In this document: positions 5,565 to 26,791 of the stretch, piece by piece | How positions within the stretch are numbered: position 1 is the first letter of the stretch | Layout of the letters: every line of letters begins with the position of its first letter | NCBI GenBank assembly: GCA_025362295.1 | Contig: JANYGX010000010.1 | Location: 26,388 to 90,387 of the forward strand | DNA: 64,000 nt | Reading direction: 5' to 3' | Source: Sphingomonadales bacterium | GTDB lineage: Bacteria; Pseudomonadota; Alphaproteobacteria; Sphingomonadales; Sphingomonadaceae | Position numbers and translations under genes: made by a program | The notes under the pieces: generated by a model | The model's input: the letters and a program-made list of their open reading frames with translations, nothing else | Database searches by the model: none | What the model was told of the DNA's origin: nothing

Positions 5565-6032
5565 ATGAAATATGCATGCACTGTTTTTATAGGCATTGCC
5601 ATGATCGCGTCACCGGTTTTTGCGCGGGACAGTCTTGGTGTGTTTGGTGATTGGGGGGCCTTCAGGGAGCGCGGCGCGTGCTACGCTATTGCGGCACCTA
5701 CGCGCGCAGATACTGGTAAACGCAGCGACCCCTATATCACCGTCAGCCAGTTCACAGCACAAGGCACGACCCCGCAAGTGATGGTCGCGGCAGGCACGGC
5801 TGTGCGCAGTGTATCGGTGCGCGCTGGCGGTCAGGGGTTTAAGCCGATTGCCAGAAACGATGCCGCGTGGATGCCGGACAGCCGCGGTGACCAGTTGCTG
5901 ATTCAGGCTTTTCAAGTCGGCAATAGCATAAACGTGGATATCACGACAGCACGCGGCAACCGGCTAAGGGACCAATATTCACTGAACGGTTTTGGCGATG
6001 CGTGGAAGGCCGCACAGGTGGCGTGTAAATAA
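5565..6032 (+). CDS. Small exported hypothetical protein
   Basis: 155 aa. N-terminal signal-like segment MKYACTVFIGIAMIASPVFA and paired Cys residues. No family recognised with confidence. Confidence 0.5.
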   Translation: MKYACTVFIGIAMIASPVFARDSLGVFGDWGAFRERGACYAIAAPTRADTGKRSDPYITVSQFTAQGTTPQVMVAAGTAVRSVSVRAGGQGFKPIARNDAAWMPDSRGDQLLIQAFQVGNSINVDITTARGNRLRDQYSLNGFGDAWKAAQVACK

Positions 6033-9069: not shown

Positions 9070-9567
9070 TCAAGTGGCAATAAGGCCGTGCCCACGGAGC
9101 GCGGTTAATATTTGGCCAAGGGTGGCGCGCGCCTGACTATCGATGGTTGTGCCACCAGAGGGCGCCGGAATGGCGCCAGACTGCGCCTGCACAACTGTTT
9201 TACCAGCAACACTGAGGCTCGACACCGGCCAATCGCCGTTGTGCCAAAATGTGCCGTCATACCAGACAAACATCAGCTCTAGCCTTGCCCAGGCCAGAAA
9301 GCCCGGCGGCACGCTGAGGTAACGCCAACCGCCGTCGGTCCACAACGCCAGCATACCAGTTTGTGTCGCCCAAGCACCGGTTGCCGCTGCTGGCACCAGC
9401 CAGAGTTGGCCAGATACCGGCGAGGCGGGCGGCGTCGCGAGATAGCGGCTTTCCAGCACGGGATGCGTCAGGCCATCAACACGGAGCAGCGCCTCGTTGT
9501 GAGTAATTTCTTTCTGGGCCTGGCCAGCGGACAGCAGCGGCAGCTGAAGACGGGGGGAGTCAGTCAT
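9070..9567 (-). CDS. DUF2793-type phage/GTA tail-fibre-like protein
   Basis: Start trimmed to MTDSPRLQLPLLSAGQAQKEITHNEAL (recalled DUF2793 signature QAQKEVTHNEAL). C-terminus ...ILTALRGHGLIAT is typical of the family. Sits directly after the g15-like gene. Confidence 0.7.
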   Translation of the reverse strand: MTDSPRLQLPLLSAGQAQKEITHNEALLRVDGLTHPVLESRYLATPPASPVSGQLWLVPAAATGAWATQTGMLALWTDGGWRYLSVPPGFLAWARLELMFVWYDGTFWHNGDWPVSSLSVAGKTVVQAQSGAIPAPSGGTTIDSQARATLGQILTALRGHGLIAT

Positions 9568-9648
9568 GGGGAAAGTCCTTAAGTTGAGAGTGAGACAAAT
9601 TTTTCGTGGTTCCAACTCAAGGCTGGAATGATGCGTTTGCGCCAGCGG

Positions 9649-11889
9649 CTAAAGCGTCACATTCACCGCGCCACCCGGACCGACCGCAGCACTCAGTTGT
9701 TGCACGGTGATCATCACCCCACTGACACTGGCCCCAAAATCCATGCTCTGATCCGCCCGCGCATAGGTCCAGCCCGGCGCAGTAACATCGACAACGCGCC
9801 GGACCACACCGCCAAGCGATACCGTGATCCGGTAGCGCTCACTTTCTTCCGCCAGCGGCACGTCGGTGCCGTCAAGCCAGGCAAAGCCATCGCGGCTGCG
9901 GCGGATCCAGCTGAGAGCGATATCACCGCTGGCACCCGTTGCGGCGTTCAGCCGGACAGGCGAGAGCGGCCGCAAGGCTTTACCCTGCACAAGGGTTGTT
10001 TGCGGTGTTACATCGCCAAGCGCGTTGCCAGGGCTGAGCGCTTTCCAAGTTTGGGTCGTGCCAACCGCCGACAGTGGCAGATTGAGGGCAATATCCGGCA
10101 GCGGACTGAGCAGGACAAACGGTTCACCCACCGCATGGCTGGATAGTGCATTGTCTGTGCCGCGCAAACCGCGCAGCAAGCCGGACAGGCGAAACTGGCC
10201 CGCCGCCAAAACAGTGACCGTGCGAAAGGCCAGCAGCTCTGATCCCAGCACAGCGAGATTGGCACCGGCAAGCACAGCCGCTGCTGAGCTGTTCAGCAGT
10301 GTATCGGTGCCGGCAACCAGTGCCACATCAACGGTGTTGTTCTCGTCCCAAAATCCGCTGGCACCAGCCGATAGCCGTGTCAACGCCGAGCCAAGTGGTG
10401 TTGGCCGCGAGACTGTTGCCGCTTGCGCGTAGCTGGTGCCGCCATCCTGCGACCACCAGACACCCGCCCGCCGCCAGCCAGGCAGCGGGCCGCTTGCCGC
10501 CACATAAAGCCGCGCGGCTTTTGGCACACTGGCCTCAATTGGCGGGAGATCGAGCACGGCCAGCACGGTTGGTCCATTGGGCGCACCAACTTGTGCCACA
10601 CCAGCCCCACCATCCGCGACCGCATTGCTGATGCCGTCCGCCGTTTGCAGCGGCTTCAGGCCAAGTGTCACCCCGCCTTCCTCAATCGCTACAGACGTGA
10701 CTTGCCACAATGCCCCCGGTTGCTCTGCCCAACCCAGAGTGTCCCCGGGCCGCACATCGGACCATGCTGGCCCCAGCCGCATCTCCAGCCGGTCACGCTC
10801 GCGCCAGCTGCGCGCCAGGCTCACCTCGGCCAGATTTTTGGCATCAACAGCTGCAAGCACGGCTGGCACGTCAAAGGTTTTTTTAGAGAGATAGCCGCCG
10901 TCCCGCCGCCGCGCCCGTTGCAGGCCGGTCTGATAATCGCGTGCCGGATCGAGAAAGCGCAACTGCAGCTCGCGCGGCAAAGCCTCGGCCGCTTGCCGGT
11001 CTTTGCGCAAGGCTGGCTTGCTACGATTGCCATCAGGCGGAAAGGCACCAAGATTGGCGACACCTGGCAGCACCCGCGCAGCGCCTTGTGTCACGGCCCG
11101 CACATTGAGCGTGCCGTCGTGCCCGTCGCTCACCATCGGTTTGATGCCACCAACCGCTTCAAGCACCGAGCGTGCCGTTGTATCCTGCGCCACGATAAAA
11201 CCGCTGACACCGCCCTCTGGCCCGCTCACGGCGCGCTTCCGCACATTGCACCTGGCGATCACATCATCAACCAGCGTTGTGAACGCCACTTGCGGGCCAC
11301 TGTCTGCAATCACCTCAAACGTCAGATTGGGAATCCGGTTGGCAAAGTCAGCCAGCGGCAGTTCCTCAAGCACAACATAAGCCATGCCCCGGTGCGCGGG
11401 GGCCTGCGCCATGCCAAGTGCGGCCTGCAGCAGCGCATCCGGCATTTGGTTTTCGCTGCCTGTGTAAAGCCGCAACGAACCACCCGGCATCAGCGTGCTG
11501 CCATCACCTGAAATCAGTTTGCCATCGGCCCAGATGCGCGCAATGCCGGCAATGGCACGGCCACTCAGGCCAACGGCAAAAGAGGCCGCGTAGGTATAGC
11601 TGTTTGTGCTGCCCGCACTTTGCTTGCCGCCTTGCGCCTGATCGGCCCGTCGCTCGATCAACCCCGTTGACCAGATGACATTGCCCGCCACCCGCACACG
11701 ACCATACACACGCGGCACAACTTCACCGTATGTTGCAGCCTGCACAGACAGATCTTTAAGGCGCGGACCATCATTGGATGACCCACCAAGAATGGCATGA
11801 TCAATAGAGGACCCAACAAACGCGCCAATCGCCTGACCAAGTGGACCAGCGACATAGTTGCCGACAGCCGAAAGAATGAGAGTTGCCAT
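9649..11889 (-). CDS. GTA g15-like host-specificity / baseplate 'megatron' homologue (short form)
   Basis: 746 aa. The N-terminus MATLILSAVGNYVAGPLGQAIG...YGRVRVAGNVIWSTGL...IARIWADGKL...LRLYTGSENQMPD...HRGMAYVVLEELPLADFANRIPNLTFEV matches the recalled g15 / lambda-J-like N-terminal module. It continues straight into a Phage-tail_3-like region. Confidence 0.7.
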   Translation of the reverse strand: MATLILSAVGNYVAGPLGQAIGAFVGSSIDHAILGGSSNDGPRLKDLSVQAATYGEVVPRVYGRVRVAGNVIWSTGLIERRADQAQGGKQSAGSTNSYTYAASFAVGLSGRAIAGIARIWADGKLISGDGSTLMPGGSLRLYTGSENQMPDALLQAALGMAQAPAHRGMAYVVLEELPLADFANRIPNLTFEVIADSGPQVAFTTLVDDVIARCNVRKRAVSGPEGGVSGFIVAQDTTARSVLEAVGGIKPMVSDGHDGTLNVRAVTQGAARVLPGVANLGAFPPDGNRSKPALRKDRQAAEALPRELQLRFLDPARDYQTGLQRARRRDGGYLSKKTFDVPAVLAAVDAKNLAEVSLARSWRERDRLEMRLGPAWSDVRPGDTLGWAEQPGALWQVTSVAIEEGGVTLGLKPLQTADGISNAVADGGAGVAQVGAPNGPTVLAVLDLPPIEASVPKAARLYVAASGPLPGWRRAGVWWSQDGGTSYAQAATVSRPTPLGSALTRLSAGASGFWDENNTVDVALVAGTDTLLNSSAAAVLAGANLAVLGSELLAFRTVTVLAAGQFRLSGLLRGLRGTDNALSSHAVGEPFVLLSPLPDIALNLPLSAVGTTQTWKALSPGNALGDVTPQTTLVQGKALRPLSPVRLNAATGASGDIALSWIRRSRDGFAWLDGTDVPLAEESERYRITVSLGGVVRRVVDVTAPGWTYARADQSMDFGASVSGVMITVQQLSAAVGPGGAVNVTL

Positions 11890-11902
11890 AATGTGATCCT
11901 GA

Positions 11903-11935
11903 TAAAAATCCTCCCCTGCTAGGGGAGGATTTTTC
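11903..11935. terminator. Perfect bidirectional intrinsic-terminator hairpin between the g14 and g15 homologues
   Basis: AAAAATCCTCCCC-TGCTA-GGGGAGGATTTTT: 9-10 bp GC-rich stem with A5 upstream and T5 downstream, so a stem plus U-tract forms on either strand. Confidence 0.7.
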
Positions 11936-12029
11936 CTTAACTTAATATCGATGAGTCTGTACTGGGGTAATGTGCTGGCCTATAAACCCATCCACCCGAT
12001 TACTGTGGCAATCTCGACTGAACCCCCGA

Positions 12030-12446
12030 CTAAACTATGGAAAACCGGTAGGCTCCCACCAGCCTTAAACTCCACGTTTCATCCAGATCATGCTCGACCA
12101 CGCGGCGAAACCGGATATCGGCATGAATGACACCAGCCCCAGTGGCAATGCCGAGATGGAGCGGCGTGCCACCAGCCGTGAACCGCAGCACATCCCCCGC
12201 CATAATCTCTGTAAAGCCAAGGGGTATCAGCTGCGCTGCCAGCAGCGCATCATCCAGGCGCGCAGGATTTTCTGTCAGACGGTAGTCTGCGTCTGTATTG
12301 TCGGCAAACCCGACGGCGCGCGCGGCAAACAGCACCAACCCGATACAATCAAGTCCGGTTGCTGGATCACGGCCCTGCAAGCGGAACGGCGCACCAACAC
12401 ACGACCGGGCGGCTTCAACAATTTTTTCACCTGGTATTTTAGCCAT
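12030..12446 (-). CDS. GTA g14-like NlpC/P60 (C40) cell-wall peptidase
   Basis: 138 aa. GRDPATGLDCIGLVLFAARAVG (catalytic Cys context) and ...GAGVIHADI (His). Overlaps the g13-like stop. Confidence 0.8.
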   Translation of the reverse strand: MAKIPGEKIVEAARSCVGAPFRLQGRDPATGLDCIGLVLFAARAVGFADNTDADYRLTENPARLDDALLAAQLIPLGFTEIMAGDVLRFTAGGTPLHLGIATGAGVIHADIRFRRVVEHDLDETWSLRLVGAYRFSIV

Positions 12447-13290
12447 TGGGATATCTCACCAGAGAATCGAGGCCAGGCACAAAAGGCTCGCCGCGAAAAT
12501 TCAACCGATTGTAAAATTTGTTGATGCAGCTGTCCTGTCGCTTGTCACAGCCAGCCGTGATGTCCAGCCGATCACCCACTTGCAGGCCAAGGCGGGGTGG
12601 TGCACGCAAACCAATTTGTATCGACGCCCCTGCCGACCCTGATGTCAGAATTTCGCCTTCATCGCTATCGTTGTTGCCAGACAGCCAGCGCACCCGCCCA
12701 TAAGCCAGATAACCGGCAAGCTGAAAATAACCGCTCACTGGCGCTGTGACCAAAAAGTTTTGCATGTCAATAACACGGGTGATGACCGCCTTGAATTTAT
12801 AAGGTTGCAGGTTAACACGGCACCGCGCATCGCCAAGCTCGGCTCGGCATTCCGGCGAATAGAGTTCCACAACCGGTGCGTCCAAGGCATCGGTAAGGCC
12901 GCGCACTTCAACAGAGAATTTTTTGTCTTCCTCACGCACGGTGCCAAAATGACCGGAAGAGAGCGCCACGCTGCCAGCATCCGGCTGCGACCAATCCACT
13001 AGAAACAAGCGAATTTCCGCACCATCAAAACGCCCAGCGCTAAGATCGCTGGCTTCAATCGCTGCATGGCTGAGCACACCGGCAAGTTCAATGGTATCGA
13101 CGGAAAACCCTGCCGACATGACCAGCGCACTGGGTGAGAACGAGGGTGTGGCCAGATAGCGCTGGCCATCGATGATAATATCGCGGTCGTGGTTGGTAAA
13201 ACCCAACACCACGCCGTCGCGCCGGCCAATACGCCAGCACAAAGCCGTGCTGGTGAGCGGGCCTGCGAGAAGATCAGTGATGGTTGTCAT
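12439..13290 (-). CDS. GTA g13-like hub protein (DUF2163 + BR0599 C-terminal domain)
   Basis: 283 aa. N-terminus LTSTALCWRIGRRDGVVLGFTNHDRDI. C-terminus CDKRQDSCINKFYNRLNFRGEPFVPG matches the recalled Phage_BR0599 motif. Confidence 0.8.
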   Translation of the reverse strand: MTTITDLLAGPLTSTALCWRIGRRDGVVLGFTNHDRDIIIDGQRYLATPSFSPSALVMSAGFSVDTIELAGVLSHAAIEASDLSAGRFDGAEIRLFLVDWSQPDAGSVALSSGHFGTVREEDKKFSVEVRGLTDALDAPVVELYSPECRAELGDARCRVNLQPYKFKAVITRVIDMQNFLVTAPVSGYFQLAGYLAYGRVRWLSGNNDSDEGEILTSGSAGASIQIGLRAPPRLGLQVGDRLDITAGCDKRQDSCINKFYNRLNFRGEPFVPGLDSLVRYPNG

Positions 13291-13378
13291 GATGGTGGCT
13301 CTCTATAATTAATATTTTAAATTTTTTCCTCCCCCCTTGCGGGAGAGAGGCAGAAAAAAACAGAGCGACGCTGGCCAA

Positions 13379-15709
13379 TCATTCCCTGATTTCCACAATC
13401 GGCACAGAAGCACTATCACCTGCCCGAAACGTGCTTGCCGAAACACTCAGCTGATCATCTTGAAACCGCACGGGCACATCGAACTGAAACCCGGCTGTGA
13501 TATTTTTACCGGCTGGAGGCGCCAGCGTAAAACTGATCAACCCGCCTGCGCCGAGCGCCCAGCCTGCATTCATCAGGGCACCGTCAACAGCGACCAGAAC
13601 GCTGGAAGCCACTGGCCGCGTGATGAACCGCACTGCTGCACCGTAATGCTTTGCCAATGGAAACGTTGTTGTGGTACCGTCGCCAAGGCCGATCGTCTGA
13701 TCCAGTGCTGTCACGGGCGCACCAAGGGCTGATGAAGTGTTATCAAGCGGATCGGTATAGCGAAAGCCGCGTGCACGCCCTTGGCGAGCCTCGAAAAAAG
13801 CCAGCAGCACAGCAAGATCAGCGTCTGATCGAATGCCGGGGGCGGCATCATAAACATGCCGCGCTTGCGCCCAGTTGATGTTGCGACTCTCATAGCCTGA
13901 GGTTGTCTCGACCACAGTGGTTGAAAATTGCGGGCCACCGGATGCCTTGCGGCCCAGCGCCAGTGGAAAAAGTATATCATCAAAGCCGTTCATATCTGTC
14001 TCCGTTTTATAAAGGGTAAAGCCATCGCGGTTGATTTGTGGCAGTGCCCAGATATAGCGGTTGCGCGCAAAGCTGGCGTTGGTTGCCACACGATCAATGA
14101 GGCCCCACTGCGCACGGCTGGCAGCATTCAAAACAAACCCGGCAAAATAATCTGTGCGGCTGTTTGGATAGCCCAGCCGTGTCTGCATCAAGGCAACACT
14201 TTGGGCATGGGCCGCAGCGTTGCCACTGGTGACAAACTCATAATCTTCCAGTTGTACCGCGTCGAATGCTGGCCAGGCCCAGCCGGTTGGAATGTTAGCG
14301 GGCAGCAACACAGCCGCTGCATCGGCGATAATTTGCGGGGTATAAATCAGCAGCGTCACCTCAGTGCCTGGCGCCTGCGTTTTAAAAGTGTTTTTAAGCG
14401 CAACCGTGGCCGCCGCCAACTGCGCACCGCACCACGTGACAAACGCCAGCTGGTCGGCGCTCAGGTTTTGCGTGACACTGGTGATGAACGCTGGCACCGG
14501 CTTGCCCGTGGCCGCAGGATACGCCGCCAGCACACTGGCATCGTAAAAACATGGTTTGCGATTTGCGCCAAGGCCAGACCACCACCACGGTTCACCAATC
14601 TGGGCTGTAAAGGTGATCGGAAAACTTTGCGCCAGACTGATAAATTGCAAAAATACTGTCTTGATGTAAGCCATGGCCGCTGTGTTCACTGGCGACAGCA
14701 GTGTTGACGGCGGGGTGTAGCCCGTGAGCGCCGGTGTGTTATCAAAAGCGCTTTGCTTCCACGCCAGCGGTGCCACCGCATCAAACAGTTCGAACGAAAC
14801 GGCAATGCCGACACCAAGACCATGCAGGGCCAGGCTTGCAAAAAAAGCTTGATGCCAGCTCACGCACGCGCCGTTCAGCACCTGCGGTGTGCTTGCCACG
14901 ATATAACGGCTTTCGCTGGCCGACCATTGCAGCGCATAATAATGGCTTTCGCCGACATAGTGATCGACCGCACCACGGTAGCCAAGCGCATGCAGGCCCT
15001 CAACCACACGCTGCGGGTTTTGATTGTACACATCATCGTAACCCGTTGCTGTGCGGTAGCCGTGCGGCGGTATGCGGCCATCGCCCATCGCCAGTCCCGA
15101 CATCGCCCCGACACAGCGCATGTTTGTCAGGGACACCGTCGCAAACGCTGGACCGCCAGCTATTGGCACGTCCATCGTTGCATCATAATCCACCGGCACC
15201 AGCGAGATGAACATGCGGTCGATATCACCGGTATACACTGGATCAGCGTTGCTGATGAGGTTGAAGCCGCCAACCATGGCATCAAAATCTAGCGCTATCG
15301 CTGCACTGGTGTTCGTGCCTGTCGCATAGTTCCAGAGCCGCACATACCAGACATGGGGCACACCGTTTGCATCGCGGCCCTCGATGGTGAGTGTTGGCCC
15401 GTTGATCGCGTCGAGCGGCTTCAGGTTACCGGTCTGGTCCCACTGGAACGACCATTTGAGGCCGCGATAATCCGTGTTTGTGGCATAGGCCAGAAGCGGA
15501 TGATCGATACTGTCAGCCGACCACCAGATCAGCCCAGCGAGATCTTTCTTGCTGACAAACACACACGCCACCTGCAAGGCATCAGCGGCCAGATTGTAAA
15601 CTGCTGCCGACATCGGGCGGGCAAAATCCACCGTCCAGTAGCGCGGATCGAAACGCTCGATTGTGGTCGTGCGCTGCTGGTCGTCAGCCGTTGCAAGCCA
15701 GTAGCTCAT
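13379..15709 (-). CDS. Fusion ORF: N-terminal region of about 560 aa (unassigned, possibly TIM-barrel/glycosidase-like) + C-terminal GTA g12 distal-tail (DUF2460/TIGR02217) domain
   Basis: 776-aa uninterrupted ORF. The last ~215 aa (MNGFDDILFPLALGRKASGGPQFSTTVVETTSGYESRNINW...FFEARQGRARGFRYTDPLD...) are a typical full-length g12. The preceding ~560 aa have no counterpart in canonical g12. Start overlaps the TMP stop. Confidence 0.7.
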   Translation of the reverse strand: MSYWLATADDQQRTTTIERFDPRYWTVDFARPMSAAVYNLAADALQVACVFVSKKDLAGLIWWSADSIDHPLLAYATNTDYRGLKWSFQWDQTGNLKPLDAINGPTLTIEGRDANGVPHVWYVRLWNYATGTNTSAAIALDFDAMVGGFNLISNADPVYTGDIDRMFISLVPVDYDATMDVPIAGGPAFATVSLTNMRCVGAMSGLAMGDGRIPPHGYRTATGYDDVYNQNPQRVVEGLHALGYRGAVDHYVGESHYYALQWSASESRYIVASTPQVLNGACVSWHQAFFASLALHGLGVGIAVSFELFDAVAPLAWKQSAFDNTPALTGYTPPSTLLSPVNTAAMAYIKTVFLQFISLAQSFPITFTAQIGEPWWWSGLGANRKPCFYDASVLAAYPAATGKPVPAFITSVTQNLSADQLAFVTWCGAQLAAATVALKNTFKTQAPGTEVTLLIYTPQIIADAAAVLLPANIPTGWAWPAFDAVQLEDYEFVTSGNAAAHAQSVALMQTRLGYPNSRTDYFAGFVLNAASRAQWGLIDRVATNASFARNRYIWALPQINRDGFTLYKTETDMNGFDDILFPLALGRKASGGPQFSTTVVETTSGYESRNINWAQARHVYDAAPGIRSDADLAVLLAFFEARQGRARGFRYTDPLDNTSSALGAPVTALDQTIGLGDGTTTTFPLAKHYGAAVRFITRPVASSVLVAVDGALMNAGWALGAGGLISFTLAPPAGKNITAGFQFDVPVRFQDDQLSVSASTFRAGDSASVPIVEIRE

Positions 15710-16272
15710 GCGCGTGACCCCGCTTGTTCAAGCGAGCGCCGCACGGCGGCGGCAATCTGCCCAGCACTGCGCGCCATGATGCGCGGCTCAGCCGCACCGC
15801 CCGTCACATTGACCGTGATCGCCACAGTCTGTTTGGCGGCTGCGCCGTTCGGCTGAACGCTGCCAGCGCCTTGCGGGATGAACAGCTCAGGGCCGCGCTC
15901 GCCGACAATATAGGGCTGACCGCTGGTGACTGCACCACCGCCAGTGCGGCCGGGCAAGCCGACAGCGCCAAGCAGCGATGACACCAGACTGCTCCCGACA
16001 CCACCACTGCCAAACAGGCTACCAAGGCCAGACTTCAGCGCGCTTGAGGCAATATCGGCAAGCACGCCAAGGGCTACTTTTTTGAAACTGTCAAAACTCA
16101 GCGAACCGGTTTTGACAAACTGTTCAAAGGCGCTGGTCAGGCGCTTACCAGTCGATTGACCAGCCACATCGAGCAGGTTTAAATCCTCTTTGGCTTTTTT
16201 GAGGTTTTGCGACAGTGCCGTGGTGTCGGCCTTCACCGCCACCACCAGGGTATCAAGGGTTGTTTCAGCCAT
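15706..16272 (-). CDS. GTA g11-like short tail tape measure protein
   Basis: Start trimmed to MAETTLDTLVVAVKADTTALSQNLKKAKEDL. C-terminal block GGGAVTSGQPYIVGERGPELFIPQGAGSVQP is the recalled TMP/g11 motif. Confidence 0.75.
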   Translation of the reverse strand: MAETTLDTLVVAVKADTTALSQNLKKAKEDLNLLDVAGQSTGKRLTSAFEQFVKTGSLSFDSFKKVALGVLADIASSALKSGLGSLFGSGGVGSSLVSSLLGAVGLPGRTGGGAVTSGQPYIVGERGPELFIPQGAGSVQPNGAAAKQTVAITVNVTGGAAEPRIMARSAGQIAAAVRRSLEQAGSRA

Positions 16273-16483
16273 GGGGAGCATCCGGAAAAAGTGTGATGAG
16301 TTTATGAAGATCGGTGCGCGTGACGCCATGCTCAGGCACAATGCCCAAACTCTCGCACCAGCCATGCCAAGCGAGTTGCACCTCGCGTGGTGTCAGTTGC
16401 CAGAAATCAGCTGGTGACCAGCCGCGCACGCCACACGCCCATTTCAAATGATTGTGTGCGTGTTTGCCAAAGCTGTCAGACAC
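16265..16483 (-). CDS. GTA g10.1-like tail assembly chaperone (rcc01693 family)
   Basis: 72 aa with WSPADFWQLTPREVQLAW. GTG start overlaps the g10 stop (GTGTCTGA). Confidence 0.7.
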   Translation of the reverse strand: MSDSFGKHAHNHLKWACGVRGWSPADFWQLTPREVQLAWHGWCESLGIVPEHGVTRTDLHKLITLFPDAPHG

Positions 16484-16781
16484 CGCCGAGCGCCTGTTGC
16501 ATCACTGCACGGAACACGGGCGTGAGCTGTGCAAGGCCAGCCTTCATGCAGGCCTCGCAAAACACATCCTGAAACAGCGTGGCTGATTTGGGTTCAACAC
16601 AGCACCAGAGCACAGTGACAAGCGATTGCAACGACAGCCGTCCATCACTGGCGGCATCAATAACCGCAAACAATGGCCCGACGGATTGCTCGGCGGCAAC
16701 CAGATTCGCATAGCTTGGTATGAGTGTATAGGTGGTGGTACCAAGCACCAGCGCCACCTCACCGCGGCTCATGTTGATCAT
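16476..16781 (-). CDS. GTA g10-like tail assembly chaperone
   Basis: 101 aa. RGEVALVLGTTTYTLIPSYANLVAAEQ...LQSLVTVLWCC is typical of the 'gene transfer agent family protein' found after the tail tube gene. Confidence 0.7.
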   Translation of the reverse strand: MINMSRGEVALVLGTTTYTLIPSYANLVAAEQSVGPLFAVIDAASDGRLSLQSLVTVLWCCVEPKSATLFQDVFCEACMKAGLAQLTPVFRAVMQQALGGV

Positions 16782-17187
16782 GACCCAAAGCTCACAGCAC
16801 CGGTCGATTGCAAAGTCATCGTGTAGGTGCGCTCGCCGTTGTAATCACCGGCAAAATCGAGCTTGGTGATGAAGAATTTACCGCGCAACGTGTCGCTGCT
16901 TTCAAACATCACGCTATAATCATCGACAACACTGCTGAGCGCATTGTTGCGCGCACGCAGTTCGGCCGCAGAATTCATAAATTACCCGAGCCTGTTAACG
17001 TCACACTCTTAAGCCCTGCGCCTGAGAGAATTTCACTCCAGCCGCCAGAGTTTTTGGTCGTGATATCAACCGGATTGGCATTGATGGCAAGCGTTGTGGC
17101 ACGCAAGCCCGCAATGGTCGTGTAGTTGGGTGGCAAGGCCCCATCGCCGATTTTCAAGAGAAAAGCCGAGCCTTTTTCAGCTGACAT
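16778..17187 (-). pseudogene. Major tail (tube) protein, TP901-1/g9 family, split by a 1-nt frameshift
   Basis: ORF 16975-17187 (MSAEKGSAFLLKIGDG...TIAGLRATTLAINANPVDITTKNSGGWSEIL...LTGSGNL*) and ORF 16778-16978 (MNSAAELRARNN...FFITKLDFAGDYNGERTYTMTLQSTGAVSFGS) together make one ~136-aa g9. The frames differ by 1 nt at GGTAATTTATGAATTC. Confidence 0.75.
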
Positions 17188-17684: not shown

Positions 17685-17941
17685 AGCACACCGCCGGTGC
17701 GTATAGCGCTGATGGACTGGGTGATCAGCCGCAATTCCGGCTGGTGCACCGTGCCAAATTCGCGCTGCGGCCCGAGTGTGCCGCTGGCCAATACAACATA
17801 ACCATTGCCGCGTTCCTCTATGCTCAGCGCTGCCGCATTGCCACCGCGTGATATCACTTCGCTAACAATACGGTTAGCAAGCGCAAACGCCCTTTTTTTT
17901 GTAGCTTCAACGGCCTTTCGTTCGAGACTGAAATCGATCAT
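17681..17941 (-). CDS. HK97 gp10-like tail-completion protein (not recalled in the canonical RcGTA set)
   Basis: Start trimmed to MIDFSLERKAVEATKK (ATGA overlap with the upstream stop). REFGTVHQPELRLITQSI resembles the EFGT....PFL.PA gp10 motif. Confidence 0.45.
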   Translation of the reverse strand: MIDFSLERKAVEATKKRAFALANRIVSEVISRGGNAAALSIEERGNGYVVLASGTLGPQREFGTVHQPELRLITQSISAIRTGGVL

Positions 17942-18273
17942 TGTTCGCGCTCCTGTTGTGTTATGAGAACAAGCCTGTCGAGCTTCTCGGGCGGGCGGTC
18001 GAGCGACAGGATAGACAGTTTTTTGCCGTTCCACACCACGCGCCAGCGCACATCGATATCGGGCGCATAGCGCAGCGTGATCTGGTAGCGGTTGAGGGTT
18101 GCGACACGACCGGCATAGTTTGTTTCTGCCATCGGGAGGCTTGTGACTGCAGCCCAGCGTGTATCGACACTGACCCAGCTGCGACTTTTGCCGCCGTAGC
18201 CATCTGTTGCATCGATCGCGCGTTCAAAGCGCACCCGCTGCCACATGGTGCCGGAAAATTCTCCATTGCTCAT
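17938..18273 (-). CDS. GTA g7-like head closure / head-tail adaptor protein
   Basis: Start trimmed to MSNGEFSGTMWQRVRFERAIDATDGYGG...WAAV...YQITLRY (SPP1 gp16/HK97 gp9-like). GGGG Shine-Dalgarno 8-9 nt upstream. Confidence 0.7.
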   Translation of the reverse strand: MSNGEFSGTMWQRVRFERAIDATDGYGGKSRSWVSVDTRWAAVTSLPMAETNYAGRVATLNRYQITLRYAPDIDVRWRVVWNGKKLSILSLDRPPEKLDRLVLITQQEREQ

Positions 18274-18284
18274 GTTGAACGCCC

Positions 18285-18830
18285 CTATGCCAGACGCAGG
18301 CGTTTGTAGGGCCGCCACAGCGCTGAGGCAGCAAGCGCAAGCCCCGCCGTTTGCGGCTCGTCGCGGTGGCTGTAAAGATGCACCGCCTGACGAATAATGC
18401 CAAGCCGCAACGCTTCAGCAAGGCCGTTCCAATCGCTGGCCATACCAGCGATGTAGTCAAGGGTGATGCGCGACAACGGCAAGGGTGCCACAGCCAGTTT
18501 CACTGTGGCTTCATCGTTCATATCCGTGCTGACTTGCACAGTTGGCAGTGCAACCGCAGTAGTCACCCCAAGTGGATCGAGCAGGGTGAGAGCCACAAGA
18601 CTGATAAAGGGTGCCTTACCAAGCGCTATGGTCTGCAGGGCAACCCTGTTTTCACGCCACACGCTGGAGAGCAGAACCAGACCCGTAAAATCTTCTGCCT
18701 GGGCAAGGGCTGCACGCAGCAAACCGCTTAACAGGGCATCATCATCGGCCGTGTCGATGCGCAGATAGGCTTTCAGTTCTGACAGCAGCGTGGCTGGCAA
18801 AACCGCTGGCTGTATAAGCGTCATGGTCAT
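18285..18830 (-). CDS. GTA g6-like head-tail connector (gp6 family)
   Basis: Start trimmed to MTMTLIQPAVLPATLLSELKAYLRIDTADDDALLSGLLRAALAQAEDFTG. ATGA overlap with the preceding gene's stop. Confidence 0.75.
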   Translation of the reverse strand: MTMTLIQPAVLPATLLSELKAYLRIDTADDDALLSGLLRAALAQAEDFTGLVLLSSVWRENRVALQTIALGKAPFISLVALTLLDPLGVTTAVALPTVQVSTDMNDEATVKLAVAPLPLSRITLDYIAGMASDWNGLAEALRLGIIRQAVHLYSHRDEPQTAGLALAASALWRPYKRLRLA

Positions 18831-19111
18831 CAGCGTAACTCCACACGCACAGAGAGCGAGCGCGTTTCCGCGCGGCCATCGCTGAACACCACATGATTGG
18901 CAATGTGATACAAATGCCCAGCAACACCGCCGATCATGGTGGCGGTGGTTTTTGTTGTTGTGAAACTTTGTGTTTGCACGGCAAGGCCACCGGGTTCGGT
19001 TGGCATAACACTCCATGCGCTGGTGGTGAGTGTCTGCACATCGAGATACCCCGCTGCCCAGTCAATGGCATAATCCAGCACCGCATCCGGCGCTTTCAGA
19101 TAGGTGGACAT
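18830..19111 (-). CDS. Small phage virion-associated protein (IDW-motif family; function unknown)
   Basis: 93 aa. MSTYLKAPDAVLDYAIDWAAGYL...ANHVVFSDGRAETRSLSVRVELR, translationally coupled to g6. I only vaguely recognise the family as phage fibre/adaptor-like. Confidence 0.5.
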   Translation of the reverse strand: MSTYLKAPDAVLDYAIDWAAGYLDVQTLTTSAWSVMPTEPGGLAVQTQSFTTTKTTATMIGGVAGHLYHIANHVVFSDGRAETRSLSVRVELR

Positions 19112-19579: not shown

Positions 19580-20110
19580 TTATGAAAATGATACGGGGGT
19601 AACACGGGGTTGGCGCAACACCGGTTGCAGGCGCGGATCAACAGAGGCGATTTGCAGGCGCTGATCCTTACTGGCTGGCGTGACGTGCGCACGCGCTATG
19701 AGTATGAGTGCGACAAGTGCATTGGTCGCACTGCTGGTATGTTTACTGCTGGCAGCATTGAGTGACCACATTGGCAACAGCGCTGTCGATGTGGACATGA
19801 TGCCATGCAGTGCGCTTGATGCTTGCAGGGTATAAACACTATTGAGGACCGGCAATTGAGCCGTTTGGTCGTGCCTGGCAAACGTAACCGTTGTTGTAAC
19901 ACTTGCCGAAAGCGCCGACAGGCCTGCTGCCTGGCTTGCCAGCGTGTGCCGTGCAAAATTTATTGCAAGGCTTGCTGGTGCAACGGCAGCAAGTGTGGCA
20001 GCCTGCGCGCTATGCAGGTGTTTTGCACTGGCACACGTGACAGCCACCGGCAGACCGAGACCGGCAACGCCTGCCTTGTGCGCATGTTTTGCATTGGCAG
20101 CTGTGGGCAT
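19580..20110 (-). CDS. Tandem-repeat protein (about seven repeats of ~18 residues with A-x-(A/S)-(K/R)-H cores)
   Basis: Start trimmed to MPTAANAKHAHKAG (AAGG about 10 nt upstream). Repeat cores: ANAKHAH, ASAKHLH, NFARHTL, FARHDQ, SSALHG, ASSKHT, ARAHVT. Coding status is uncertain because of GC-rich shadow ORFs on the opposite strand. Confidence 0.4.
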   Translation of the reverse strand: MPTAANAKHAHKAGVAGLGLPVAVTCASAKHLHSAQAATLAAVAPASLAINFARHTLASQAAGLSALSASVTTTVTFARHDQTAQLPVLNSVYTLQASSALHGIMSTSTALLPMWSLNAASSKHTSSATNALVALILIARAHVTPASKDQRLQIASVDPRLQPVLRQPRVTPVSFS

Positions 20111-20274
20111 GGAACGTGCCTTTGTGAGGGTGATGCGTGAAAAACGGCTAAACTTTGCTCTCTCCCCCACAAGGGGGAAGAGGCAGAGTCATTCGGTATT
20201 AATGGCACTATCGTGTGCCGCCGTGGCCGGAAGGGGAAACAGCCACGGCGGTACGTTCAACATGTCACGAGGGG

Positions 20275-21475
20275 TTATGACACATCGAATTTCATCAACT
20301 TGATCGCCTCGCTGTTGAGCACTGCGCCGCCGACGCGTTTGGTTGCATAAAACTGCACATAGGGTTTGTTGGTGAACGGATCGCGCAGGATGCGTGTGCC
20401 AACACGGTCCGCAATAATATACCCGTGATAGAAATTACCAAAAGCGATTGACAGGCTGCCGGTACCGACATCCGGCATGTCTTCCGCTTCAACCACATCG
20501 TAACCCAGTAAGGTTGGCGAGCGGCCTTCGGAAAAACTTGGTTGCCAGATGAAATGCCCGGTCGCATCCTTAAATTTACGGATGATCGAGACCGTTTTTG
20601 AATTCATCACCCAGACAGCGCCTTGTCGGTAGGTGGCGCGCAGGCTGTGCAGCAGATCGATCAGCTGTTCGGCTGGTGCTGTCGCCGAAAACCCGCCGGC
20701 AACGCCGGTGGCATTATATTGCAAGGTGCCAAAAGCCCGTGTTGCATCGGGGGTGGCGGCAATCGGGTAGGTCAGAAAACCTTTTGGTTTGGCTGTGCCG
20801 TTGCCATTGATAAACGCCGTGCCTTCCTTCTGGGCAAAGTCGCGGGCAATTTCTTCAGTGAGCCATTGTTCGACATTGAAGAACGCATCATCCAGCATGA
20901 ACTGTGTGGCGGACGGGTTGGCATAAAGATCACCCGCTGGCGGAAATTTGCGTGAACGTGGTCGCCGCTGTTGTTGGCCGTGCATCCTGCTCAGCGGCCC
21001 AGCCGGATGTGAGGCCAGACGATGCGACCAGCTTGCTATAGCCAGATGTGCCAACTTGCACATTTTGCGCGACGGCCCTCAGCGGCGATACAGCCCGCAA
21101 GCGCAATTCGATATTGGCATCGATTTGCGGGGTGACAGTGTAGCCACCTTCTGCCGGCACGCTGATATCGAGCGCTTTGGTTTGTAGCGCCTGCAAACCG
21201 GTTTCATTGCCGCGACGCAGGTATGAACCAAACGCGGCCTTCAGTTCAGGGTCTTCCTCGACAACAGCGGCTGCCGATTGCAAGGGGCGCTGGGCAGCCC
21301 GGCTGATTTTTTCCATGCGCGATTTCACCTGAATTATTTCTGCATCAATGCGGTTCAGTTTTTCATTCAGCAGCACATCGTGCCGAGCCGTATCGATGTC
21401 GTTTACAGTGTCTGCAAACGCCGTGTGCACCGCCTTCATGTCATGCGAGGCGGCTTTTGTTTCATAGGTGGTCAT
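20275..21475 (-). pseudogene. HK97-family major capsid protein (g5), interrupted by a 1-nt frameshift
   Basis: ORF 20930-21475 ends ...ARPTTAATTFTQISASG*. ORF 20275-21063 carries ...PPAGDLYANPSATQFMLDDAFFNVEQWL... to the C-terminus ...AIKLMKFDVS. Skipping one T in CAAATTTCCGCC gives the contiguous ...TFTQIPPAGDLYA... and a capsid of about 398 aa. Confidence 0.8.
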
Positions 21476-21933
21476 TGTGGTTGGTCTCCAGTTGTTGGGG
21501 TTTGTGTTGGCGGGTTTTGCACCATCAGCCGTGCCAGAGGCTGCATGGGAAACGTCACCACCGAGATTTCGACAAGCTCAAGCTCGGTGAGGATACGGAT
21601 TTTACGAAGTCTGTTGAGGCTGAACTGGCGCACTCGGTAGCCGATGGAGAGGCCGTTCAGGGCGCCGTCGCACACAAGGGCATTGGCATCAGAACCAATT
21701 TGTGCACCCGTGGTGAAATGGCCGCTAATTTTTAGGCCGCGCGTGTCTTCAGCAATGCTTTCAATCACCCCGATCGGGTTTTTGATATCATGCTGCCAGA
21801 GCAGTGGCAGAGCCTGCTTTCTGGCAAGCGCTTTTTGAAAAGCGCCAGGCATAATCACATCGCCGCCGCTGTCCGGCATAGAAAATACTGCAGCATAACC
21901 GTCGAAACGGTTTGCCGTTATTGGCATGGTCAT
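21472..21933 (-). CDS. HK97-family prohead protease (g4)
   Basis: 153 aa. FDGYAAVFSMPDSGGDVIMPGAFQKAL...LPLLWQHD...PIGVIESIAEDTRGLKISG. Overlaps the capsid start. Confidence 0.85.
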   Translation of the reverse strand: MTMPITANRFDGYAAVFSMPDSGGDVIMPGAFQKALARKQALPLLWQHDIKNPIGVIESIAEDTRGLKISGHFTTGAQIGSDANALVCDGALNGLSIGYRVRQFSLNRLRKIRILTELELVEISVVTFPMQPLARLMVQNPPTQTPTTGDQPQ

Positions 21934-21955: not shown

Positions 21956-22270
21956 TCAGTGCAACAACACGTTTGGCAGGGCGCGCCACTTGATCAGCAG
22001 CAGGCAAAACACACCAATGACAGCAAGGCGAAACACCCAGCCGATCAGACTGTGGGTGATCGAGCGTTTGGCATCGCGCCAAGCGTCCAGCAAATCCCGC
22101 ACGTCGCGCAGATCCTGTGCGGCAACGGCATCCTCCAGCCCCAGGCGGGCAAGCGCCCGCGACGCCCCCAGTTCGGCTGCCTCTTCCACCAGCGCATGAA
22201 TTGTCACCACAGCAGCGCCCTCACGCGTTGCCTGATCGGCAAGCGCTGCAAGCAGGCCATGGCTGGTCAT
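21956..22270 (-). CDS. Small C-terminally membrane-anchored protein, g3.5 (rcc01685)-like in position and architecture
   Basis: 104 aa. Helical/acidic N-terminal part, then the TM helix LIGWVFRLAVIGVFCLLLI. Located between portal and protease, as g3.5 is in RcGTA. Confidence 0.5.
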   Translation of the reverse strand: MTSHGLLAALADQATREGAAVVTIHALVEEAAELGASRALARLGLEDAVAAQDLRDVRDLLDAWRDAKRSITHSLIGWVFRLAVIGVFCLLLIKWRALPNVLLH

Positions 22271-22641: not shown

Positions 22642-23850
22642 TTATCCGTCACTGATGTCTTCACGCAACATGGTTAACCCAAGCAGCTGGCGTTTTTCGG
22701 TGTCGCTGAGAAACGCCGCCGCACTCACCTGCGCCCAGACTTGCGCACGGTCAGTCGCCAGCGCTGGAATAGAATCGAGATCAATGCCGAGTTCAAGCTC
22801 TGGCCAATAGAGTTGCAACCAGCCGGAGAGGCTTGCAAGAATGCGTGTCGATAGCGGCAACAGCGTGGCGCGCCACAGCGCCTTGCTCGCCTCCTGATAG
22901 TTGCTATAGGTGGCGTCCCCCGGAATATTAAGCAGTATCGGCGGCACACCAAACGCCAGCGCAATGTCGCGCGCAGCGGCATGGCGCGAATTGATAAAAT
23001 CCATATCCGCTGGTGTCATCGACAGCGGCTGCCATTTCAGGCCGTCTTCCAGCAACAGTGGCCGCCCGGCATTGTCGGCCCCCTGAAAATGATCGGCCAT
23101 TTCACCCTTAAGCCGCGTGTACTGATCCGCCGTGAGGTTGGTTGCGCCGTCGCCGGGTTCAAACACCAGAGCCCCTGAGGGGCGTGCGGCATTCTGCAAC
23201 AATCCAAGCGTCCACTGCGCTGCAGCGTTGTGCGTTTCTATGGCAAGGGCCGCTGAATCAACCCCGCCTAGCCCGTAATGATCGTCCAGCGGATTGAACG
23301 TTTTCAGGTGCAGCAAGTCGGACCGGCCCGTGAGCGGATCGACAGCAAAATTCACCACTGTGCCCGCCACTTGATATTTGTAGGTGGCCGGCCAGCCGGT
23401 GGAACTCGCGACCACTGTCACCCGCTCTGGTCGCAGCAGATAGAGCTCCGCTGGGGCCCCGTCATGCCCCTCGACAAGTTCAATATAGGCATTGCCGTGC
23501 AACATCAGATAGCTCGCTAACGCTTCCATAAATGCCGGACCGCTTTGCGCAGCGTTGGGCTGGGCCAGCAGTTTGAGCACGGGATGCTGCGGGCTTGCCC
23601 GGCCCTGTTCCGACGCAGTGAGTTCAAGCGAGGCCAGACCGTCACTCAGCATCTGCACCGCGCGTCGCGCCACCGGATTGCGCTGGTAGCCATCGCGTGT
23701 GAGTGCCTCGTAGCCCAGCGCCCCAAAGCGCGGCAGGCCGGTTGTGAGGTAAGCCGCAAATGTCGAGCGGGATATGCTGCCACTGGGCGGCAAATTGGTG
23801 CGACTGGCTTTGGTTGCAAAACGGTGGCGCAAACGCGAGAGCAGGGTCAT
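22642..23850 (-). CDS. HK97-family phage portal protein (g3)
   Basis: 402 aa. ...YLMLHGNAYIELV...FNPLDDHYGL...LLNIPGDATYSNYQEASKALW... is typical of portal proteins. Confidence 0.9.
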   Translation of the reverse strand: MTLLSRLRHRFATKASRTNLPPSGSISRSTFAAYLTTGLPRFGALGYEALTRDGYQRNPVARRAVQMLSDGLASLELTASEQGRASPQHPVLKLLAQPNAAQSGPAFMEALASYLMLHGNAYIELVEGHDGAPAELYLLRPERVTVVASSTGWPATYKYQVAGTVVNFAVDPLTGRSDLLHLKTFNPLDDHYGLGGVDSAALAIETHNAAAQWTLGLLQNAARPSGALVFEPGDGATNLTADQYTRLKGEMADHFQGADNAGRPLLLEDGLKWQPLSMTPADMDFINSRHAAARDIALAFGVPPILLNIPGDATYSNYQEASKALWRATLLPLSTRILASLSGWLQLYWPELELGIDLDSIPALATDRAQVWAQVSAAAFLSDTEKRQLLGLTMLREDISDG

Positions 23851-23953
23851 GAGCGATGGTCCTTTGTGATCAGAAAAGTGATAGTATAGAATTTAGACAA
23901 GTGGCGCTAAGCTTTGCGAGCTCTCCCGCAAGTAGAGAGAAGTAGAAAACGAT

Positions 23954-25273
23954 TTATAATGATCTCAATTGCGGCACGGCGGCCAGTGCACCAAGCGCAA
24001 GTTCAGTCACCGCCCACACGAGCGCGTCAGCGCGGTCTGGCGAGCGCGTGGCACCGGCATAGCCGCCGCCAATCTGCAAGCCGCAAAGCTCATCCTCCAG
24101 TGCTGAAAAGGCCCGGGCATGGTGCACATGGCCGCGCTCATAGAGTGCGGCAACCGGCTCGGCGCGCGCGACCTTGCCGCGTGAGGCCCGCACCAGTTTG
24201 AGAGGCAGCACAGCGTTCTGTGCCCGTAAAACAGACCCCACCAGATCGCCACCATTGTTGACTTCCGCCACAATCCGGTCTGCACCAACGCGGGCAGCAA
24301 CATCAACAGCCACGCGCGCCCAGTGTTCTGGTGAGGCACCCTGAAGGCTTGCATCTGCCAGCACATAAACATGGCCATCGGCGGCAATGCCGGCGGCAAC
24401 AATGCCGCAGGCATCGGCTGTGGCACTGTGCGACACTGGCGGATCGACCGCCACCACAACGCGCATCAGCTCTGGCACGCTGTCCACATGGCAGGCGTCC
24501 ATCAGCGCGCGGCTGAACAGCGCGCCTTCGATATCCTCGATAAAATCACCATCGATTTCCTGGCGCCCCATTCTGGTGCCTGCATAGGCGCGCTCCAGCG
24601 ACAGCACAAAATCGGCCGGAAGCGCTGCCAGATTGTCGTGCATGCGGCCACGCGCCACGATGGTGCGCTCTGCCACCAACATTTTTTTGATAAGACCAAT
24701 CGGGCGCGGTGTGGTGGTGACGCACGCCCGCGGGTGCTTGCCCAGCCGCAAGCCCATTTGTAGGTTCATCCACACAGCCTCTGTATTGGGCCACTTCGCC
24801 AATTCATCACACCAAGCAAAATGGTGTTGCCCGCCGCGCAGGCCGTCTGCATCTTCAGCGGAATACACCAGCGCTTGTGCGCCACTTGGCCACAGCAACC
24901 GCCGACGGGAGATTTCATAGCGGGGCCGCGCATGATCAGGTGCTATGGCCATCAACCCGCTTTCACCTTCGATCATCACCTCGCGCGCTTCGTTGTAGGA
25001 AGCCGCAACCAGGGCAACACGGCAACGCGGATGCTTCGTCACACACGCCCGTATCCACTCCGCTCCCGTGCGAGTTTTGCCAAAGCCGCGACCGGCCAAC
25101 ACCAGCCAGGTGCGCCAGGTGTCATGGGCTGGCGGCAACTGATTGGGTCGTGCCCAGAAGCGCCAGTCTTTGGCCAGCGCTGCAAGCCGCTCCGGGGGCA
25201 GATCGGCAAGCACGGCACGACGCTCCGCCGCCGAAAGTGCCGACAGCTGCTGGGCAAGCGATGTTAGAGACAT
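23954..25273 (-). CDS. Terminase large subunit (g2)
   Basis: Start trimmed to MSLTSLAQQLSALSAAERRAVL (the tracked ORF has a 95-aa implausible extension). LVLAGRGFGKTRTGAEWI Walker-A-like motif. Nuclease half ...VVAVDPPVSHS...DACGIV. Confidence 0.9.
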   Translation of the reverse strand: MSLTSLAQQLSALSAAERRAVLADLPPERLAALAKDWRFWARPNQLPPAHDTWRTWLVLAGRGFGKTRTGAEWIRACVTKHPRCRVALVAASYNEAREVMIEGESGLMAIAPDHARPRYEISRRRLLWPSGAQALVYSAEDADGLRGGQHHFAWCDELAKWPNTEAVWMNLQMGLRLGKHPRACVTTTPRPIGLIKKMLVAERTIVARGRMHDNLAALPADFVLSLERAYAGTRMGRQEIDGDFIEDIEGALFSRALMDACHVDSVPELMRVVVAVDPPVSHSATADACGIVAAGIAADGHVYVLADASLQGASPEHWARVAVDVAARVGADRIVAEVNNGGDLVGSVLRAQNAVLPLKLVRASRGKVARAEPVAALYERGHVHHARAFSALEDELCGLQIGGGYAGATRSPDRADALVWAVTELALGALAAVPQLRSL

Positions 25274-25355
25274 AGTGGATACTCCTGCATGGCGGTGGGC
25301 GGCGGTATGTTCAGACATGTGGCGAACAAACGAGAGCGGAAGAAAAGCTTTGTGT

Positions 25356-25958
25356 TCACTCGCCCAAGTGTTCTGGACCGAGCCTGTTCTCAGTGACACC
25401 ATCACCATCACTCTCGCCGTCCCGTTTTGCAGCTGCCAGCCGTGCCAGTCTTGCCTCAATTTGCGTGCGCACATCGGCGGTTTCATCCACCACACCCGAA
25501 CCCACTTCAGCAAACGCCTCGGGTCGCCGGTTGCGCAGCATGAACATCGCCAGCGCATCGGAATAGTGTTTGTAGGTGCCCTCGCATTTGCCTTTGTAGA
25601 TGAGAGGTTTGTCGAGACCGTGGATCACCCGGTCGAGCAGCACGGCTTCCAGCCCATCGAGCGCCTGATTGATGGCAATGTGCCAGGCTGCAGCAAATGC
25701 CGGATTTTTACGGCGCTCCGCATAGGCATGCCACGGCGCCATGTTCATCTGCAAAGCGCTCTGGCGCACATTGGCGGTATCTGTCAGTCGCACCAGAAAT
25801 TCATGCCGGCGCTTTTCATTCCAGATGAATTTTTTGAGCGGTAGTTTTTTACCGACACGTTTTTTTACTGGTTTGGCGACCGCTGGTGATTTTTTTTTGC
25901 TTCGTATGGGCACAGCGACTTTTGCTGGTGTTTGTGTTTTTTCAGTCAATGGAAGCAC
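25356..25958 (-). CDS. Terminase small subunit-like DNA-binding protein
   Basis: 200 aa. Lys-rich N-terminus, then EKRRHEFLVRLTDTANVRQSALQMNMAPWHAYAERRKNPAFAAAWHIAINQALDGLEAVLLDR...YSDALAMFMLRNRRPEAF, the pattern recalled for alphaproteobacterial phage TerS proteins. The start (GTG 25958 or TTG 25949) is uncertain. Confidence 0.55.
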   Translation of the reverse strand: MLPLTEKTQTPAKVAVPIRSKKKSPAVAKPVKKRVGKKLPLKKFIWNEKRRHEFLVRLTDTANVRQSALQMNMAPWHAYAERRKNPAFAAAWHIAINQALDGLEAVLLDRVIHGLDKPLIYKGKCEGTYKHYSDALAMFMLRNRRPEAFAEVGSGVVDETADVRTQIEARLARLAAAKRDGESDGDGVTENRLGPEHLGE

Positions 25959-26106
25959 TCCTTCTGGTCACGTTATAATTGCGCCAACGCAATATCGATT
26001 CTGTAGCGCATGATTAATATATTGTTATTGGTGCTGTGGTATTTTCAATGAATGGGCTGTGAGGGCTCATGATTTTTTAAAATGAAACCGCACAAAGGAA
26101 CATATC

Positions 26107-26577: not shown

Positions 26578-26791
26578 AGGGTTTTGATATACCCTCCCTT
26601 GCGGAAGAGGATAGGCAAACTGGGCGGCGTTCTATAGTCGCCCAGTTGAAGTTAAAGAGGGGGGGCGGAAGGCAGCGGGTTTATCGTCAGCGGCCTATTG
26701 ATTGCCGCTTGGTGGCCTCACCTGATTTCCCACTTTGCTTTAATGTATAACCAATAGCGTAACGCTTGTCAACAGTTATTTTCAAATAAGG

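Follow-up and report, generated by a model that had tools for sequence, protein, structure and literature searches.

Passage of RNA polymerase through terminators inside GTA clusters, with anti-termination as the means, is already a published theme. GafA homologues are annotated as DUF6456 proteins (PMC9638019), and the Caulobacter protein GafZ is homologous to the C-terminal domain of GafA (PMC11150451). In Caulobacter, GafZ lets the polymerase pass the terminator terGTA and also rrnB T1 (Tran and Le 2024, PMC11150451). In Bartonella, BrrG is the processive antiterminator of the GTA of that genus (BaGTA), where it serves the bgtA-K operon, and Korotaev et al. propose that anti-termination is general across alphaproteobacterial GTAs (bioRxiv 10.1101/2024.11.20.624540). 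The first-pass annotation of the DNA studied here drew attention to a hairpin between the g14 and g15 homologues of a GTA cluster, and pointed in this connection to anti-termination by GafYZ in the Caulobacter crescentus GTA, which the published work bears out (PMC11150451). We regard this locus as a modest, putative example of the published theme, in a new position and in a new family, and not a new mechanism.

The window, that is, the whole 64,000-nt stretch of DNA analysed, carries an RcGTA-type head-tail cluster on its minus strand, as assigned with Pfam and NCBIfam. The cluster comprises genes for the terminase (23954-25558), the portal (22642-23850), a DUF6127 protein (21956-22270), the prohead protease (21472-21933), the capsid (g5, in two pieces at 20930-21475 and 20275-21063), a Gp77-like adaptor, a head-tail connector (gp6-like) and a head completion protein (together 17938-19111), a g10-like chaperone (16476-16781), the tape measure (15706-16365), a fusion of a sheath domain with DUF2460 (g12; 13379-15709) and g13 (12439-13290), all on the minus strand. 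Upstream of the hairpin lies the g14 homologue, an NlpC/P60 peptidase of 138 aa (12030-12446, minus; PF00877, TIGR02219). Downstream, also on the minus strand, are a g15 ('megatron')-like baseplate protein of 746 aa (9649-11889; PF13550 (Phage-tail_3) and PF23666 (Rcc01698_C)) and, last of the block, a DUF2793 gene (9070-9615; PF10983, E 8e-28). The g15 homologue matches the NCBIfam model GTA_megatron with an E value of 1e-149, which is below the cut-off of that model because the protein is short.

The spacer between g14 and g15 (11890-12029, minus) is exactly 140 nt long, as the first-pass annotation had given it. In the direction of the genes it consists of about 95 nt without assignment, then the hairpin and then 14 nt (AUCAGGAUCACAUU) up to the g15 AUG. 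No second copy of the spacer was found in the genome with blastn, and a search against Rfam returned sub-threshold chance matches only. The hairpin itself is a 31-nt perfect palindrome at 11904-11934, composed of AAAAATCCTCCCC (11904-11916), TGCTA (11917-11921) and GGGGAGGATTTTT (11922-11934). This is the sequence originally reported, whose limits of 11903-11935 add one base on either side. On the gene strand (minus) it reads as an A5 tract, a stem of UCCUCCCC / GGGGAGGA, the loop UAGCA and a U5 tail UUUUUAUC, and the strand continues through to the start of g15 as GGAAAAAUCCUCCCC-UAGCA-GGGGAGGAUUUUUAUCAGGAUCACAUU-AUG. On the plus strand the U-tail is UUUUUCCU; thus a U-tract lies directly 3′ of the stem on either strand, and the terminator anatomy that had been described for both strands (stem, loop and U-tract) is found in either direction. 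RNAfold, which had been put forward for terminator prediction at this site, folds either strand into a stem of 14 bp capped by a 3-nt loop. The stem has an 8-bp GC-rich core, with 6 G-C pairs, that is lengthened to 14 bp by A-U pairs, the loop being 3-5 nt, and the core hairpin has a dG of -15.8 kcal/mol on both strands. In 60 dinucleotide-shuffled versions of the window, stems of at least 13 bp turned up 3 times, or about 0.05 per window, and the g14/g15 hairpin is therefore more than a product of chance. The exact palindrome is present as a single copy in the 2.59-Mb genome.

Hairpins with a U-tract behind them were searched for genome-wide, against a crude gene call of 2180 genes that makes 89% of the genome coding. 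The core stem falls within the dG range of the strongest intergenic terminators of this genome. A stricter class, defined by an A-tract, a hairpin and a U-tract that score as a terminator on both strands, yielded 21 matches at about 18 distinct sites, all of which are intergenic, with none in the coding 89% of the genome. As all sites are intergenic, this anatomy is highly specific for real terminators in this genome. The g14/g15 hairpin lies outside coding sequence and 3′ of g14, as expected of an intrinsic terminator, and it is the sole strong gene-strand terminator within the intergenic gaps of this GTA cluster. In anatomy it is identical to an ordinary bidirectional intrinsic terminator and cannot be told from the roughly 18 other such motifs of the genome. 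The palindrome is thus very probably a two-way intrinsic (Rho-independent) terminator, a reading that its sequence supports well, and we infer that it stops transcription in vivo. Its position, however, is somewhat atypical. The ordinary terminators of the genome usually lie 15-45 nt 3′ of a stop codon, at the ends of genes or operons, whereas this one lies 101 nt past the g14 stop, with only 20 nt between it and the start codon of the next gene, in a place that would normally be internal to one operon. As a terminator for a plus-strand gene it has no obvious role, the nearest likely upstream gene on that strand being ORF 5565-6032.

The genome also contains a dispersed family of hairpin repeats. 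Hairpins of the form CTCCC-loop-GGGAG number 23, against 3 for a mirror control, and many of them share a longer module of about 90-180 nt, which reads GGAGAGGGG...CCCCTCTCTCAGC...GCTAAGCG...GCTATCTCTCCC-GCAA-GGGGAGAGAGGAAGG. Copies are often located directly upstream of start codons and often in head-to-head pairs. A covariance model, R1, built from ten copies recovers at least 45 in the genome at E < 0.01 (for example G000:C21:3677-3766, C2:96492-96584 and C3:199570-199740), and in an Rfam search 12 of the copies had no match above threshold, only chance ones below it. Four of the copies are in the GTA cluster or next to it: in the TerL/portal gap (23895-23951), the post-capsid gap (20107-20192) and the g12/g13 gap (13317-13348), with one past the cluster end (26580-26672). 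Such a REP-like family could supply a reading in which the palindrome is not a terminator at all but a repeat copy, or else a palindromic operator for a DNA-binding protein. The palindrome core, CTCCCC...GGGGAG, does resemble the stem of the family, as both pair a C/U-rich 5′ arm with a 3′ arm of GGGAG; copies of the family are also found in other intergenic gaps of the cluster, and REP-like insertions are present at the g14/g15 junction in three other genomes. Nevertheless, we consider this reading very improbable. With filters off, R1 scores the g14/g15 hairpin at only 4.6 bits (E ~1.1), whereas the copies located in other gaps of the cluster reach 23-30 bits, and the hairpin is therefore not a recognisable member of the family. 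Moreover, the family lacks the A5/U5 flanks, and the hairpin lacks the upstream module of the family. The roughly 18 motifs of the same architecture have unrelated stem sequences, which fits terminators and not one operator. A dispersed-repeat origin of the spacer as a whole was likewise rejected, there being no second copy and no claim on the hairpin by the covariance model.

Two further hairpins were observed in gaps of the cluster. In the g12/g13 gap (13291-13378, minus) the hairpin CCUCUCUCCC-GCAA-GGGGGGAGG has U7 upstream and A6 downstream on both strands, which is the reverse of the terminator layout. A hairpin is also present in this gap in the closest relative, and there is no gap in a relative with 66% g14 identity. 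Directly 3′ of the capsid gene (20171-20274, minus) is a GC-rich hairpin of 10-13 bp without a U-tract. The closest relative, L058, has kept this hairpin (L058:2212-2317), with a single compensatory change in which a C-G pair becomes A-U.

That g14 and g15 are normally adjacent, as the first-pass annotation had it, is borne out by the relatives. Read base by base, the two genes are coupled in 27/29 members of the family and order (-13 to +10 nt, or a start a few bases past the stop), and one of the 29 has instead a 695-nt insert built of three direct repeats. Across the order we surveyed 300 genomes, in which 136 g14-g15 pairs were measurable with gaps estimated from match coordinates. By this estimate 118 of the 136 pairs lie within 30 nt of coupling, and the gap exceeds 80 nt in four, this genome included; the remaining long gaps are filled by REP-like repeats or by a 2.3-kb insert. 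Among closer relatives in the protein collection, the gap is 49 nt at 83% g14 identity, 52 nt at 79% and 2 nt at both 66% and 64%. The 49-nt and 52-nt gaps each hold a hairpin without a U-tract, CCUCUCCC-GUAAG-CGGAGAG and CCCACUGCCG-CAAG-CGGAGUGGG; in both of these the 5′ arm is C/U-rich and the 3′ arm contains GGAG. As the closest relatives also have hairpins at g14/g15, an intercistronic hairpin in this place is characteristic of the sub-clade. Beyond the gene ends no alignment of the relatives' spacers was possible, and homology between their hairpins and the present one (ATCCTC[T]CCC ... GGAG) is only suggestive. The terminating version, with its A5/U5 flanks and approximately 90 extra nt, is private to this genome among the sequences compared. 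An exact-pattern scan of metagenome contigs for same-species copies gave 0 matches, and protein-guided scans for such copies gave one distant match in genome contigs and none in metagenome contigs.

The same junction takes other forms elsewhere. In one genome of the order (L014, G028:C1) the GC-rich gap of 695 nt between g14 and g15 is made up of three direct repeats, each about 200 nt long and containing palindromes, and in another (L051, G257:C7) a GC-rich gap of about 400 nt contains tandem 21-mers and inverted repeats. Both arrays bring to mind the terGTA repeats of Caulobacter. In L052, from another genus of the family, a two-hairpin element akin to R1 fills the gap. Lastly, on a metagenome contig (L049) a g14 that is 72% identical, and also 138 aa long, has 139 nt of AT-rich DNA behind it, and the ORF that comes next is something other than g15, which makes the g14/g15 junction a breakpoint in this clade.

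The position of the hairpin bears directly on how g15 could be expressed. The g15 AUG follows the U-tract after just 14 nt, which carry nothing but the Shine-Dalgarno sequence AGGA (11897-11900). There is therefore no room for a promoter downstream of the hairpin, and g15 and the DUF2793 gene would thus depend on read-through. A consensus scan of the spacer likewise found no sigma-70-like site, and we rejected a separate g15 promoter. An attenuator or riboswitch was also rejected: RNAfold found no structure competing for the terminator arms, and the spacer has a fold z-score of only -1.9. Nor is there a leader peptide, the sole ORF being M-G-L-stop. Measured against the closest full-length relative, dN/dS is 0.11 for g15, 0.05 for the DUF2793 gene and 0.06-0.14 for g12-g14. 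By this measure g15 and the DUF2793 gene are under strong purifying selection and as constrained as g12-g14, which shows long-term function of the two genes but does not date the hairpin.

Twenty GTA clusters of the same family were fetched, 16 of them full-length. At least one strong gene-strand terminator-like hairpin (dG -11 to -26) lies between GTA genes in 10 of the 16. Most of these hairpins precede the portal gene or flank the capsid gene, and none is at g14/g15. In the clusters with internal terminators the homologues of terL, portal, capsid, g12, g13 and g15 are all still detected. Internal terminators are therefore not avoided in the clusters of this family, which speaks for either read-through or internal promoters as a trait of the family. 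As comparative support for anti-termination, these clusters are more informative than the single g14/g15 site.

In three of the 20 sampled family genomes (L062, L069 and L072; G257, G098 and G261), just 1.5-4 kb lie between the terminase homologue and g15. These genomes have therefore lost most of the GTA cluster, and GTA decay is frequent in the family. In the genome studied here, the capsid gene (g5; overlap at 20930-21063) and the tail-tube gene (g9; approximately 16970-16990) are each split by a single-base frameshift in the assembly sequence. The genome has no second copy of either g5 or g9, and both are intact in L058 (405 aa and 136 aa, respectively). The gene density of the genome gives no sign of pervasive assembly frameshifts. 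The first-pass annotation had overlooked these two frameshifts, and a neutral or degenerative origin of the arrangement must therefore be treated as a serious rival.

The gene that had been called GafA/GafZ-like lies beside the cluster (ORF 26792-27529, minus) and does encode a DUF6456 protein, the domain spanning residues 116-244 (PF20057, E 7e-40), which makes it a candidate regulator of the GafA/GafZ type. Residues 1-115 matched no Pfam or NCBIfam model. A candidate GTA promoter was noted by eye at 25972-25993 (minus), where a palindrome, ATTGCGTTGGCGCAAT (25978-25993), abuts a TATAAC hexamer (25972-25977) some 20 nt ahead of the first gene's ribosome-binding site. This layout recalls the GafZ-binding element of Caulobacter, which lies between -35 and -10. 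No terminator-like hairpin was found on the gene strand from the leader to the terminase gene, the sole one being that which precedes g15.

Taken together, we favour the explanation that the terminator is tolerated because GTA transcription is anti-terminated, and we give this a probability of about 45%. A genuine two-way Rho-independent terminator would have arisen in this lineage inside an intercistronic spacer. Most transcripts made by ordinary polymerase on the GTA operon would end past g14, at a point 14 nt short of the g15 start codon. Polymerase from the GTA promoter would be made terminator-resistant by the adjacent GafA/GafZ-type protein, such that g15 and the DUF2793 gene would still be made upon switch-on of the cluster and stray transcription would be stopped. 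The mechanism is the one shown for Caulobacter GafZ and Bartonella BrrG. The terminator anatomy, its restriction to intergenic sites and its standing as the only strong gap terminator in the cluster all favour this explanation; the missing promoter space of g15, together with constraint on g15 and the DUF2793 gene in line with g12-g14 (dN/dS 0.05-0.14), favours dependence on read-through; and the neighbouring DUF6456 gene, the internal terminators of 10/16 relatives and the GafZ and BrrG precedents favour anti-termination. On these grounds we infer both termination and its bypass in the living cell. Set against them, the terminator appears to be private to this genome, the leader carries none, unlike the Caulobacter layout, and anti-termination by a DUF6456 protein has been shown in Caulobacter only. 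Moreover, the cluster may already be dead, with g5 and g9 frameshifted, and a bypass would then not be needed. A bolder version makes the hairpin a selected second gate, a late GafZ-dependent checkpoint on the baseplate/host-contact module of g15 and DUF2793, and takes the internal terminators of Acetobacteraceae GTA clusters to mean that processive anti-termination is ancestral to, and universal for, RcGTA-type clusters. We hold this to be quite unlikely.

If the cluster was recently inactivated, the hairpin may be a neutral or degenerative accident that terminates transcription and is polar on g15 and DUF2793, with selection no longer acting against it. An imperfect hairpin could have become a perfect palindrome with A5/T5 flanks through, for example, a template-switch ('quasipalindrome correction') or a small insertion. 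A single template-switch can perfect an imperfect hairpin, A/T flanks included, so selection need not be invoked. The single-base frameshifts in the capsid (20930-21475 / 20275-21063) and tail-tube (~16975) genes speak for such a history, as do the lack of other g5 and g9 copies, their intact state in L058 and the heavy truncation of 3/20 sampled family clusters. The two closest relatives have at the same junction hairpins without a U-tract, and the perfection of the palindrome over 31 nt would point to one recent event more than to long maintenance. Yet g15 and the DUF2793 gene remain open and have been under strong purifying selection over a measurable divergence, even though this does not date the hairpin. 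Internal terminators are, moreover, common in apparently intact related clusters, such that a terminator need not mean decay, and the frameshifts themselves are taken from the assembly sequence. We regard an accident as possible but doubtful.

Intercistronic hairpins set dose in other polycistronic operons, and the element might similarly be a leaky terminator or an RNA-stability element without dedicated anti-termination. Some polymerases would stop and the rest pass, and the hairpin would shield the message upstream of it at its 3′ end or, once processing has taken place, the g15 message at its 5′ end; the outcome would be a lower dose of g15 and DUF2793. The three closest genomes all have a hairpin at g14/g15, and two of these have one at g12/g13 as well, the post-capsid hairpin is conserved with its compensatory pair change, and the present hairpin lies directly 5′ of the g15 ribosome-binding site. 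In related clusters, too, the terminators often flank the capsid gene, where dosage control makes sense. By general terminator rules, however, a perfect 14-bp stem with A5/U5 flanks would be an efficient terminator and not a weak one. The hairpins of the relatives have no U-tract, and the terminating version is thus not what is conserved; furthermore, we know of nothing in the RcGTA baseplate to suggest lower amounts of g15 than of g13. Partial termination or message stabilisation is therefore, in our view, an unlikely account of the element.

Should the hairpin terminate and be bypassed, as the anti-termination explanation has it, this would be a natural canonical terminator in an RcGTA-type cluster outside Caulobacter. 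It would offer a simple handle on whether DUF6456 (GafA/GafZ) proteins antiterminate processively in other alphaproteobacterial families, as two recent papers propose. Should it be a mere accident in a dying cluster, it would illustrate the decay of GTA clusters, with no wider consequence.

Of the described systems, bgtA-K of Bartonella is, like the case proposed here, a GTA structural operon that needs read-through of a termination site. There, however, the antiterminator BrrG is Q21-like and not a DUF6456 protein, and the termination site lies in a long leader and not late in the operon. [quoted passage not shown] In both Caulobacter and the present genome the terminator lies within a co-directional head-tail cluster that is adjoined by a DUF6456-type gene. 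Moreover, the GafZ-modified polymerase of Caulobacter passes a canonical hairpin, rrnB T1, and the hairpin between g14 and g15 is also canonical.
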